This document shows positions 38,312 through 39,157 of a stretch of 64,000 bases of DNA, one piece after another. The stretch is from sequence record PV464738.1, one strand, 5' to 3'. Each line of letters begins with the position of its first letter. Within the stretch, counting starts at the first letter, position 1. The notes beneath the pieces were generated by a model. It did no database searches and was not told the origin of the DNA. It was given only the letters and a program-made list of their open reading frames with translations. The DNA is from Escherichia phage RCIP0319. A program made the position numbers and the translations under genes.

Positions 38312-39157
38312 TTATTCCGCTTGATCACCGTCTTCGGCATCTTCGTTGGATTCAACATCGACAAACTCGATGTGGCCCATCTCTTCCAGCTTGCTCAGGT
38401 AGGAGCGAACGGAAGCGCCAAACAGTTGATCTTTAACTTTTTCGCCCAGCTCATCGATAGACTGCGCCACGCCAACTTCGCCTTCTTTGATCGCCGCCAG
38501 AACGCGTCCACGGGTAGAATGCTCTTGCGGCTGGCTCAGGCCATTGCCAGTGTAGATGAAGTGAGTAGCTTTTGCACGACGCTGACCGTTTGCCTTTTTA
38601 GCAGCCTTACGTTCTGCGATGGCTTTGCGACGTTCTTCAGCTTCTTTCTTACGCTGTTCTTTCTGCTGTTCTGCAGCTTCTTTAGCCGCAATCTTAGCAG
38701 CTTCACGCTCTGCCTTGCGTTTCGCTTTAGCTTCTTCTTTGGCCTTCTCTTTTTCGGCCTTCGCTGCAGCACGGGCTTGATCACGCTCTGCTTTCTTAGC
38801 AGCAGCTTGTTCAGCTTTCAGGCGCTTGGCTTCTTCTTTAGCCTTTGCCTTTTCGATTTCTTTTGCTGCTTTAGCGGCTTCACGCTCTGCTTTCTTAGCA
38901 GCAGCTTTTTCTGCACGCTCTTTGGCTTTCTTCGCTGCTTCTTCAGCACGTTTCTGTGCTTTCTCATCAGCGGCCTGCTTGCGTTTCAGTGCAGCTTCTT
39001 CACGCTTGGCTTGTTTTTCCTGCTCACGCTTTTGGCGTTTTTCTTCGGCTTCTTTCTTTTTAGCCAGGCGTTTTTCTTCAGCCACGCGACGACGTTCTGC
39101 TGCAGCTGCTTGTTTTTCTTCTTTAGATAATACTTTGATTGCTTCGGCCATATTCAC
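38312..39157 (-). CDS. K/E/A-rich coiled-coil protein with globular C-terminal domain
   Basis: 281 aa; about 200 aa of KAEREAAKAAKE-type low complexity, then a non-repetitive ~80-aa C-terminus; overlapping track ORFs on both strands are low-complexity artefacts. Confidence 0.5.
   Translation of the reverse strand: MNMAEAIKVLSKEEKQAAAAERRRVAEEKRLAKKKEAEEKRQKREQEKQAKREEAALKRKQAADEKAQKRAEEAAKKAKERAEKAAAKKAEREAAKAAKEIEKAKAKEEAKRLKAEQAAAKKAERDQARAAAKAEKEKAKEEAKAKRKAEREAAKIAAKEAAEQQKEQRKKEAEERRKAIAERKAAKKANGQRRAKATHFIYTGNGLSQPQEHSTRGRVLAAIKEGEVGVAQSIDELGEKVKDQLFGASVRSYLSKLEEMGHIEFVDVESNEDAEDGDQAE

Follow-up and report, generated by a model that had tools for sequence, protein, structure and literature searches.

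Several described proteins share parts of their design with the product of the gene analysed here. ER/K single alpha-helix (SAH) domains, to which the phage rod bears a likeness, are highly charged helices without a hydrophobic seam that are stable alone; an Ala content of 30% is atypical for them. Helices with an 11/3 periodicity, such as those of apolipoproteins, alpha-synuclein and group-3 LEA proteins, carry a straight, non-supercoiling stripe along an extended surface. In E. coli SSB, T4 gp32, T7 gp2.5 and HMGB1, a DNA-binding body is followed by a disordered acidic C-terminal tail. Linker histones H1/H5 join a winged-helix globular domain to a long Lys/Ala-rich region, and domain II of TolA is of low complexity, rich in A/K/E and predicted to form a long helix. 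The phage protein recalls each of these in part. With a probability of roughly 0.45, it is best explained as a non-enzymatic nucleic-acid-binding accessory (most likely DNA-binding) of the phage replication/DNA-metabolism module.

Gene boundaries and expression signals

The window, i.e., the whole stretch of 64,000 nucleotides analysed (Escherichia phage RCIP0319, PV464738.1), belongs to Wifcevirus and is 98% to Escherichia phage FEC19. This genus became tractable in E. coli K-12 only a short time ago (PMC11990801). The following features define the gene and its surroundings.

38312..39151, minus strand: coding sequence, 279 aa plus stop, with an ATG start (ORF list and sequence)
39160..39164, minus strand: Shine-Dalgarno AAGGA, read off the sequence
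39208..39236, minus strand: sigma70-like promoter, TTGCTA, 17-nt spacer and CATAAT (consensus scan, pattern match only)
38254..38284, minus strand: Rho-independent terminator, an 8-bp stem GACCCACA/TGTGGGTC followed by TTTTTT (terminator scan)
39311..40495, minus strand: gene for a Dda-like SF1B helicase, the upstream neighbour (Pfam AAA_30, AAA_19 and UvrD_C_2)

The listed ORF (38312..39157, minus strand) begins at an in-frame GTG at 39157. Translation almost certainly begins with the ATG at 39151, giving a product of 279 aa and 31.1 kDa, because AAGGA lies 8 nt from this ATG and only 2 nt from the GTG, and because the ortholog is 840 nt long in every annotated congener (phages Mansfield, Bas100 and vB_Eco4M-7). 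The Mansfield record carries a ribosome-binding site annotation at the corresponding position. The sigma70-like promoter sits in the 159-nt gap between the helicase gene and the rod/winged-helix gene, and this gap is of comparable length in all relatives (85–160 nt). At the other end, the terminator stem (38284–38264, with the T-run after it) starts 27 nt past the stop codon, and the Mansfield, LMA2 and XcP1 records each list a terminator at the matching site. This promoter-like site and terminator suggest that the gene is transcribed as its own unit directly after the Dda-like helicase gene. As the earlier note on this sequence described, there is a K/E/A-rich region (here of ~190 aa), a C-terminus that is globular and a terminator belonging to this gene.

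Distribution, selection and genomic context

The protein matched the PHROG 4765 profile with an E value of 2e-84 (residues 3–281 on profile positions 14–271 of 294). Orthologs occur in 356 phage records, and the family is confined to PB1-like/Wifcevirus-like myoviruses, including E. coli Wifcevirus and Pseudomonas PB1-like phages; its members include PB1 gp69, LMA2 gp66, 14-1 gp67, Pa193 gp84, BcepF1 gp072, XcP1_051, MyoSmar_031 and vB_Eco4M-7_83. An exhaustive phmmer search yielded 26 representatives with one architecture throughout. Word-indexed sequence searches for distant relatives returned only fragments of the same family, and a BFVD fold search matched only family members. No Pfam family was matched by the protein at E ≤ 1, and a sequence search of the PDB gave no match. 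A weak similarity to the YejK/NA37 nucleoid-associated protein (PF04245) was also observed.

The PB1-like orthologs share the three-part architecture and the place after the Dda-like helicase, and their C-terminal domains are 42%–59% identical. They differ in the helix, which ranges from ~30 to 260 residues and is unalignable between genera, and in the His-rich N-termini found in some of them. Within the genus, comparison with three congeners identified 18–22 synonymous codon differences versus one nonsynonymous difference, with the helix included, pointing to strong purifying selection. Conservation in distant phages, this synonymous excess and the peptides detected by mass spectrometry (MS; see below) together indicate that the gene is real and is not a low-complexity artefact. 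The earlier note had allowed for an ORF not conserved in related phages or a protein absent from virions and infected cells; the ORF is instead conserved and the protein is expressed.

The helicase-then-gene order is common to Pbunavirus, Bcepfunavirus, Carpasinavirus, Myosmarvirus and three divergent metagenomic contigs, and even in the most distant members the gene always follows directly after the one for the Dda-like helicase. The surrounding module encodes a primase, helicase, exonuclease and Pol III-alpha. In the curated genome of a congener, neither an SSB nor any other DNA-coating protein is annotated. A role in defence or anti-defence was rejected, as PADLOC gave no match; the anti-END inhibitor of Pbunavirus, 14-1 gp88, is distinct from the protein of this family.

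The N-terminal charged helix

Residues 1–195 consisted of 30% Ala, 24% Lys, 20% Glu and 11% Arg, with a net charge of +28 and 11 large hydrophobic residues (6%). Asp and Glu together accounted for 21% of the basic region, which contained no Pro. An AlphaFold2 model of the protein (pLDDT 86.8) predicted a single helix of 177 residues here, and its coding region contained degenerate repeats.

38594..39124, minus strand: unbroken A/K/E/R-rich alpha-helix, residues 10–186, ~26 nm long (AlphaFold2, pLDDT mostly 80–97)
38730..38911, minus strand: degenerate DNA repeats within the helix-coding region, period 99 nt or 33 codons (Tandem Repeats Finder)

Fourier analysis of the basic residues gave a power of 3.3–3.7 at a period of 3.7 (95% shuffle maximum, 1.7) but only about 0.05–0.25 at a period of 3.5. 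The basic phase was coherent along the helix, with the acidic residues located ~180 degrees away. These computations show that Lys and Arg form one continuous hendecad stripe, with Glu/Asp and Ala on the opposite face. The 11/3 (3.67) basic periodicity exceeded the 95% shuffle maximum in 20 of the 23 family sequences (21 distinct) and was kept although the helix sequences are unalignable between genera. For A/L/I/V/M/F, the power at a period of 3.5 was 0.04–0.05, versus a mean shuffle maximum of ~1.1. A heptad coiled coil was therefore rejected, and the term coiled coil, under which the region was first described, finds no support in its heptad sense.

Tandem Repeats Finder reported 1.8 copies of the 99-nt period with 77% matches, and further copies were spaced at 33 and 198 nt. 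Three direct-repeat families (D2, D6 and D10) were likewise spaced at 33, 99 and 198 nt. These distances correspond to units of 11, 33 and 66 codons and not to 12-residue KAEREAAKAAKE units. The repeat number did not vary within the genus, all compared orthologs being 840 nt long.

The composition and the single helix predicted by AlphaFold2 fit the profile of an SAH (ER/K) domain, while the high Ala content and the segregation of basic from acidic faces would also allow charge-complementary self-association. The likeness to lipid-binding 11-mers is limited, as those have an apolar face flanked by Lys, whereas the phage rod segregates a basic face from an acidic/Ala face.

Many GenBank entries for this family are annotated as "TolA protein" or "cell wall associated", which would make the product a TolA-like envelope-spanning or cell-wall-associated protein. 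The A/K/E-rich sequence does resemble TolA domain II, and an uncorrected BLASTP comparison with E. coli TolA returned an E value of 1e-32 over 193 residues. However, no match at E ≤ 10 remained when SEG and composition-based statistics were applied, indicating that the likeness is purely compositional. The maximum Kyte-Doolittle mean over 19 residues was 0.61 for this protein and at most 1.32 in all 27 relatives, compared with 2.45 (at residue 14) for E. coli TolA; thus, no family member has a transmembrane or signal segment, whereas TolA has one. No TolA, TonB or Pfam match was obtained, the NCBIfam TolA model was not matched, and the modelled C-terminal fold is a winged helix rather than TolA domain III. 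TolA domain II also lacks the single basic stripe, with a power at the 3.67 periodicity of 0.10 versus 3.3 here. Finally, the tolQ-tolR-tolA-tolB-pal context, which like the membrane anchor and domain III is found only on the TolA side, was absent, and the gene lies in the phage replication module. The envelope-spanning interpretation, also raised in the earlier note, is accordingly refuted, and we consider a TolA-like function to have a negligible likelihood. The misleading "TolA" or "structural protein" label is present in hundreds of records, and establishing a DNA-binding or packaged, genome-associated role would also put right this propagated annotation error.

The basic arm, winged-helix domain and acidic tail

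Three further segments follow the helix.

38564..38593, minus strand: conserved basic arm G-x-RR-x-KAT-H, residues 187–196 (family alignment)
38360..38563, minus strand: winged-helix domain b1-H1-b2-H2-H3-b3, residues 197–264 (AlphaFold2, high confidence)
38315..38359, minus strand: disordered acidic tail, residues 265–279, net charge −8, pI 4.05, ending in -QAE (low pLDDT)

The arm joins the helix to the globular domain. In the family alignment, R192 was invariant, and R191, T and H were nearly invariant. Of the 24 aligned members, most had an arm with a net charge of +1 to +5, and one had an arm with a net charge of 0. For residues 197–264, AlphaFold2 gave the order b-a-b-a-a-b, and the model shows a winged-helix topology (a three-helix bundle with a beta-sheet wing, or a variant of it). 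Invariant residues of this domain were Q209, S212, R214, R249 and K254. Together with R191 and R192, these invariant or nearly invariant positions are all basic or polar, and they map to the arm, the N-terminus of H1 and one face of H3; R249 and K254 are located on H3, the predicted "recognition" helix. The tail was net negative in all family sequences examined except two, with a length of 4–50 aa, and is conserved in charge and not in sequence. The last residues of many tails are -AE or -E, at most a hint of a tip motif.

The domain shares its fold class and order of secondary structures with the winged helices of Fur/PerR/Zur, ArsR, MecI/BlaI, PriA and ORC2, and, as in winged-helix DNA-binding domains, its third helix and N-terminal arm have conserved basic residues. 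R249 and K254 on H3, together with the RR-x-K arm, are indirect evidence that it may bind DNA through helix 3 or the wing. It differs from them in having no sequence-level relation to any Pfam or PDB family, and it is unlike known winged helices in its extra N-terminal strand, its slightly acidic core and its fusion to a 26-nm charged helix.

Linker histones resemble the phage protein in their combination of parts, and a possible architectural role on DNA would be a further shared trait. Nevertheless, homology was rejected at the sequence and profile levels. None of the 24 members matched PF00538 in Pfam even at E ≤ 10, hhalign against chicken GH5 gave a probability of 15% over 19 columns with non-equivalent helices, and Foldseek against the GII domain of yeast Hho1p gave an E value of 1.5 and a TM score of 0.41. 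The H1 tail is disordered, polycationic and C-terminal, whereas the basic region of the phage protein is N-terminal and helical, with its acidic residues (21%) and lack of Pro; in addition, the phage protein has an acidic tail that linker histone H1/H5 does not have. Of the "histone-H1-like" description given previously, the winged-helix fold class and the basic region therefore hold, while a sequence or profile relation does not and the domain order is reversed. Because the net charge among relatives ranges from −23 to +17, polycationic compaction of DNA is not a conserved property of the family.

A winged helix could also read a phage promoter element or bind a subunit of the host RNA polymerase, in which case the protein would be a transcription factor or polymerase adaptor that switches transcription to middle or late genes. 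This seems quite unlikely. The 177-residue charged helix and the acidic tail are foreign to known phage transcription factors, the position beside replication genes is invariant, and the protein singled out by the 14-1 study is gp12. Around the gene, neither iterons nor a repeated operator-like motif was found besides the coding low-complexity repeats.

Alternatively, the domain might be a variant of the winged helix resembling the ribosome-docking insert domain of MetAP2/Ebp1/Arx1, and the protein a ribosome- or RNA-binding factor. Long Lys/Glu/Ala helices are indeed common in ribosome-associated proteins. However, the matches to MetAP2/Ebp1/Arx1 were weak (Foldseek E at least 0.27, identity 6%–15%), and the matched insertions are eukaryotic or archaeal, without an evolutionary link. 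Moreover, the genomic context is that of DNA replication, and neither translation-related genes nor Rfam elements occur close by; scanning the entire window for tRNAs and Rfam families returned nothing. A role at the ribosome is thus very improbable.

Proposed function and occurrence in virion preparations

The combination of a predicted DNA-binding body, an acidic tail and a gene in the replication module is shared with SSB, gp32, gp2.5 and HMGB1, although the phage protein has neither an OB fold nor an HMG box. If the protein is a DNA-binding accessory of replication, the arm and the winged helix would anchor it on DNA, and the basic stripe would add an extended, sequence-independent electrostatic contact. 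Alternatively, the stripe of one copy may pair with the acidic/Ala face of another, forming a rod-like dimer that could bridge DNA. The acidic tail could fold back on the basic surfaces and be auto-inhibitory, as in HMGB1, or could recruit a protein of the replisome, for instance the neighbouring helicase, in the manner of SSB, T4 gp32 and T7 gp2.5. An abundant DNA-binding protein of this kind would for that reason be expected to co-purify with virions or to be packaged into them. The protein is lineage-wide, strongly constrained and evidently abundant. As a DNA-binding replication partner or a packaged genome-associated protein, it would fill a gap in a replisome without an annotated SSB or DNA-coating factor, and it would add a new design, namely a single helix of 26 nm that bears a straight basic stripe with hendecad periodicity and is joined to a winged helix.

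The MS data bear on a further possibility, that the product is an internal virion protein loaded with the genome and ejected into the cell, where it would accompany or shield the entering DNA, which is probably hypermodified. In that case, the basic stripe would lie against DNA or the inner wall of the capsid. The ortholog was identified in CsCl-gradient-purified virions of vB_Eco4M-7 by seven peptides with a protein score of 1197.6 (PMC7048862). The major capsid protein (936), portal (1112) and sheath (891) all scored lower (PMC7048862), although MS scores are not stoichiometries. The ortholog was also found by MS in ECML-117 (PMC7048862). Exactly seven tryptic peptides of at least 7 aa are possible, as many as were detected, and the mass of 31.1 kDa agrees. 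As such peptides can arise from only ~33% of the protein, it is under-sampled by MS. Orthologs of LMA2, JG024 and XcP1 are annotated as "putative structural protein", and a trimeric poly-Ala helical density without side-chain features lies unassigned beneath the capsid hexons of Pa193 (PMC11456595).

Other observations point away from a structural role. The gene belongs to the replication module and lies behind a sigma70-like promoter, a long way from the structural genes. The same MS preparations included a DNA helicase, a glyoxalase-family protein and a 3-oxoacyl reductase (PMC7048862), and since these are plainly non-structural, carry-over into virion preparations is likely. The score in ECML-117 was very low (3.21), and the ortholog is called hypothetical in the 14-1 and PB1 records. 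The protein is unassigned in the cryo-EM atlases of E217 and Pa193, and the Pa193 text names other gene products as unaccounted virion proteins (PMC11456595). We therefore regard packaging as doubtful, while recognising that it overlaps with the favoured role as a DNA-binding replication accessory, since a DNA binder could also be packaged.

A more specific form of packaging, in which the protein is genome-associated and is injected as an escort of the probably thymidine-hypermodified DNA of the phage, appears distinctly unlikely. The 11/3 stripe would then run along the DNA or the inside of the capsid, and transfer of the entering genome to replication proteins, e.g., the Dda-like helicase, would fall to the winged helix and acidic tail. 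Such an escort would be the counterpart, in a tailed phage, of a linker histone or core protein, but on an unrelated scaffold, and it might explain the trimeric helical density under the hexons of Pa193, a Pbunavirus.

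Transcription signals and expression of the gene

The ORF list places the gene at 38312..39157 on the minus strand. An AAGGA Shine-Dalgarno sequence (39164-39160) lies 8 nt ahead of the ATG at 39151 and 2 nt from the GTG, and annotated orthologues are 840 nt long; the product is therefore a protein of 279 aa (31.1 kDa, pI 9.6). Two signals flank the gene:

39236-39208, minus strand: sigma70-like promoter (TTGCTA-17-CATAAT), inside the 159-nt gap behind the upstream helicase gene
38284-38264, minus strand: stem of an intrinsic terminator (8-bp GC-rich stem plus T-run), 27 nt past the stop codon

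With this promoter-like site and terminator, the gene looks like a separate transcription unit, in agreement with the earlier note, which had assigned it a terminator of its own. A weak terminator-like hairpin (39249-39261, minus strand; 5-bp stem GTGGC/GCCGC, then a T-run) lies just past the stop codon of the Dda-like helicase gene and just upstream of the promoter-like site, suggesting that the two genes are partly insulated in transcription. An opposite-strand ORF (38066-39130, plus strand; 354 aa, rich in Phe, Leu, Ser and Cys) mirrors the Ala/Lys/Glu codon repeats. It is an antisense reading of the low-complexity region, annotated in no related record and without independent support, and almost certainly no gene.

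Three lines of evidence, namely conservation, codon differences and mass spectrometry, establish that the gene is real and expressed. The surrounding 4 kb shares 95%–98% identity with 28 Wifcevirus phages of Escherichia and Shigella (top match FEC19, 98.2%), in whose records the gene is labelled "hypothetical protein" or "TolA protein". When the final 92 residues were used as a tblastn query, 356 phage records matched, comprising Wifcevirus, approximately 290 Pseudomonas Pbunavirus and phages of Serratia, Pantoea, Burkholderia (BcepF1), Xanthomonas (XcP1) and Vibrio. Over the 279 codons, comparison with three congeners revealed 18–22 synonymous differences and one nonsynonymous difference; strong purifying selection acts on the low-complexity helix as well. 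In preparations of vB_Eco4M-7 and ECML-117 purified on CsCl gradients, Necel et al. 2020 (PMC7048862) identified the orthologue by LC-MS/MS. For the 31.1-kDa protein of vB_Eco4M-7, where locus tag vBEco4M7_83 is the positional orthologue, they gave a score of 1197.6, with 7 peptides covering 25.8% of the sequence. Given that the protein yields exactly seven tryptic peptides of at least 7 residues (coverage ceiling 32.6%), this detection was near saturation.

The vB_Eco4M-7 score exceeds those of the capsid, portal and sheath, and some records annotate the orthologue as "structural protein", as expected of a packaged or ejected virion protein. However, the score in ECML-117 was very low, the gene location argues against a virion protein, the structural atlases of E217 and Pa193 lack it, and obviously non-structural enzymes were detected in the same preparations. 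The non-structural-arm proteins found in the purified virion preparations of these two Wifceviruses are a glyoxalase-family protein (score 718), a 3-oxoacyl reductase, a DNA helicase and unknown proteins of 31.2 kDa (518) and 20.7 kDa (623) (PMC7048862, Tables 1-2). Either abundant soluble proteins were carried over or several "metabolic" proteins are packaged. Packaging or ejection is considered unlikely, although it would be compatible with the DNA-binding role proposed below. Beneath the capsid hexons, the cryo-EM structure of Pa193 shows a trimeric density modelled as three poly-Ala chains of approximately 16 residues; for want of side-chain features, this density could not be matched to any gene product (PMC11456595). 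That an Ala/Lys/Glu-rich helix like that of the Pa193 orthologue H6S64_gp84 (L009:961-1854) would give such a density is pure speculation.

Domain architecture and family

The K/E/A-rich region and distinct C-terminal domain described in the earlier note were borne out by a split in composition at residues 195/196 and by AlphaFold2, which folds the C-terminal part. Residues 1-195 consist of 30% Ala, 24% Lys, 20% Glu and 11% Arg, with only 11 large hydrophobic residues and a net charge of +28, and residues 196-279 have an ordinary composition and a net charge of -11. The AlphaFold2 model of the C-terminal domain, built from a 22-sequence alignment, was confident (pLDDT 89.8; b1-H1-b2-H2-H3-b3), and in the full-length model (pLDDT 86.8) residues 10 to 186 form one continuous helix of ca. 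26 nm and the acidic tail is disordered. Foldseek returned no significant match in the PDB (best E 0.27), and matches in a viral structure library were confined to family members. Searches of Pfam, NCBIfam, PADLOC and PDB sequences gave no match, PHROG 4765 (E 2e-84) being the sole family match. We therefore assign the modelled domain to the winged-helix fold class, but to no characterised family.

Among 1.84 billion representatives searched exhaustively with phmmer, only 26 proteins matched at E ≤ 1e-3. Full-length members share one architecture: a variable N-terminal A/K/E/R-rich region (approximately 30-260 aa, unalignable between genera), an arm (G-x-RR-x-KAT-H), the domain (GLS-x-PQ-x-x-S-x-RGKV and LYG-x-S-V/I-RSYLSKLEEMGH-L/I-DFV) and an acidic tail. 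Invariant or near-invariant positions (R191, R192, Q209, S212, R214, G215, R249, K254 and L255) map to the basic arm, the H1 N-cap and one face of the third ("recognition") helix. The tail (4-50 aa) is net negative in all but two of the sequences examined and frequently terminates in -AE or -E, and the helix usually starts with a capping-box-like L-T/S-x-E/K-Q/E motif. Six relatives outside Wifcevirus and Pbunavirus (P0007, P0014, P0015, P0017, P0019 and P0020) carry His-rich N-termini ahead of the long helix, with 4-6 His within the first 25 residues (e.g., MSHTHHHD..., MHKHHNHDHN...), suggesting possible metal binding; the protein studied here has no such segment.

A basic stripe along the helix

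Fourier analysis did not support the coiled coil proposed in the earlier note. The 3.5-residue periodicity of Ala and hydrophobic residues was essentially absent (power 0.04 vs. a shuffle maximum of ca. 1.1), and a classical coiled coil was rejected. Lys and Arg instead peaked sharply at 3.7 residues (11/3; power 3.3–3.7 vs. a 95% shuffle maximum of 1.7), which exceeded the shuffle threshold in 20 of the 23 family sequences examined (21 distinct), even though their helices are unalignable. The stripe is coherent in phase over the whole helix, with Asp and Glu, plus Ala where detectable, lying approximately 140–180 degrees from the basic residues, and the degenerate DNA repeats that encode part of it recur at intervals of 33, 99 and 198 nt (11, 33 and 66 codons). 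The net charge of the helix varies from +3 to +16 in relatives (+25 here), and that of the whole protein from -23 to +17 across the family. Thus, neither the helix sequence nor a large net positive charge is conserved; what is conserved is that the basic residues of a very long helix line up in a straight stripe along one side, and the other side is acidic/Ala.

Comparison with TolA, histone H1 and YejK

A TolA-like role, also raised in the earlier note, is scarcely credible. The Kyte-Doolittle 19-mer value reaches 2.45 in the clear membrane anchor of Escherichia coli TolA and at most 1.32 in any family member. The BLASTP match to TolA (E 1e-32 over 193 residues with filters off) disappeared at E ≤ 10 under SEG and composition-based statistics, and TolA domain II, unlike the present helix, lacks the 3.67 basic periodicity (power 0.10). 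Homology to TolA was rejected, and the label "TolA protein" is a low-complexity artefact.

The suggested likeness to histone H1 held only for the fold class and for the presence of a Lys/Ala-rich region next to a winged helix. PF00538 matched no family member, hhalign against chicken GH5 gave a probability of 15% over 19 non-equivalent columns, and Foldseek against Hho1p GII gave E 1.5. The two also differ in domain order, in charge balance and in the Lys/Ala-rich region, which is helical here and disordered in H1.

Weak but recurrent matches to the nucleoid-associated protein YejK/NA37 involved the H1-b2-H2 segment of the domain (38360-38563). Pfam NA37 matched 5 of 24 members weakly (best E 0.005), PDB 9be2 (9be2_A) matched at E 0.28, and hhalign against E. 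coli YejK (L019:6941-7948) gave a probability of 43% over 38 columns; fold searches did not recover YejK. This likeness stems either from remote relatedness or from a local motif that both proteins have in common. A likeness to the MetAP2/Ebp1/Arx1 insert would favour ribosome or RNA binding, which we regard as very improbable.

Genome context and possible function

The gene directly follows the Dda-like SF1B helicase gene, across a non-coding gap and occasionally one or two small ORFs, in every genome examined, namely those of Wifcevirus, Pbunavirus PB1, LMA2, 14-1 and Pa193, BcepF1, XcP1 and MyoSmar and three divergent metagenomic contigs (35-71 kb). One such intervening ORF, of 84 aa, occurs in a divergent metagenomic relative (L013:5478-5732) whose family member has a helix of only ca. 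30 residues; by eye, it resembles another small winged-helix/HTH protein (MKMKIKDRIRAALSNGRLSYFELAYQVF...). The surrounding module encodes a RepB-like primase, an RNase T-like exonuclease, a Pol III-alpha-like polymerase and PNKP-like phosphatases. In the carefully annotated congener Bas100 (L002, L017 and L018), where roughly 60% of genes are hypothetical, the annotation of the whole 68 kb lists no SSB, no recombinase, no histone-like protein and no transcription regulator. Its replisome inventory (a Pol III-alpha-like polymerase, an epsilon-like exonuclease, RepB-like primases, three helicases and a ligase) is without a known DNA-coating component.

The reading we favour, at a probability of roughly 0.45, is a non-enzymatic DNA-binding accessory of the replication/DNA-metabolism module. 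It rests on the winged helix with its conserved basic arm and conserved H3 Arg/Lys, the extended basic stripe, the acidic tail, the invariant position in that module, the strong constraint and the evident abundance of the protein. The structure and its conservation are established computationally, and DNA binding is inferred from them. Acidic tails of a comparable kind occur in SSB, gp32, gp2.5 and HMGB1. Here, the tail may serve in auto-inhibition or in recruiting a partner, possibly the helicase encoded next to it. With its basic and acidic/Ala faces kept apart, the helix might pair into a charge-zippered rod dimer able to bridge DNA. However, the winged-helix core is slightly acidic, structural matches are at the fold level only, and synteny inside one collinear phage lineage discriminates little. 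The non-sigma70 promoters of phage 14-1 await a factor, but nothing singles out this protein, and a role as transcription factor or RNA-polymerase adaptor seems improbable.

The gene is already present in hundreds of database records, in a family with a misleading name and no assigned function. We rate the protein broadly among winged-helix nucleic-acid-binding proteins, and its combination of a winged helix, a 26-nm hendecad-periodic, basic-striped single helix and an acidic tail matches no characterised family found. It matters mainly as a core, constrained and abundant protein of PB1-like phages, which are in therapeutic use, and of Wifcevirus, a model that has newly become tractable.

Downstream enzyme cluster

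An enzyme cluster (34958-38179, minus strand, continuing further downstream) lies immediately downstream of the gene:

37184-38179, minus strand: UDP-galactopyranose-mutase-like flavoprotein, no Pfam match
36672-37118, minus strand: 148-aa ORF with a signal-peptide-like N-terminus
35827-36657, minus strand: ThyX
34958-35830, minus strand: HAD/PNKP phosphatase

The cluster of congeners additionally encodes an SDR/FabG-like reductase and a glyoxalase/VOC protein. According to a 2025 preprint (PMC12191111), which does not name the biosynthetic genes, TG motifs of Pbunavirus DNA contain a sugar-derived hypermodified thymidine, and Wifcevirus was described as notably resistant to restriction in the BASEL paper. 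The cluster is an obvious candidate pathway for thymidine hypermodification.
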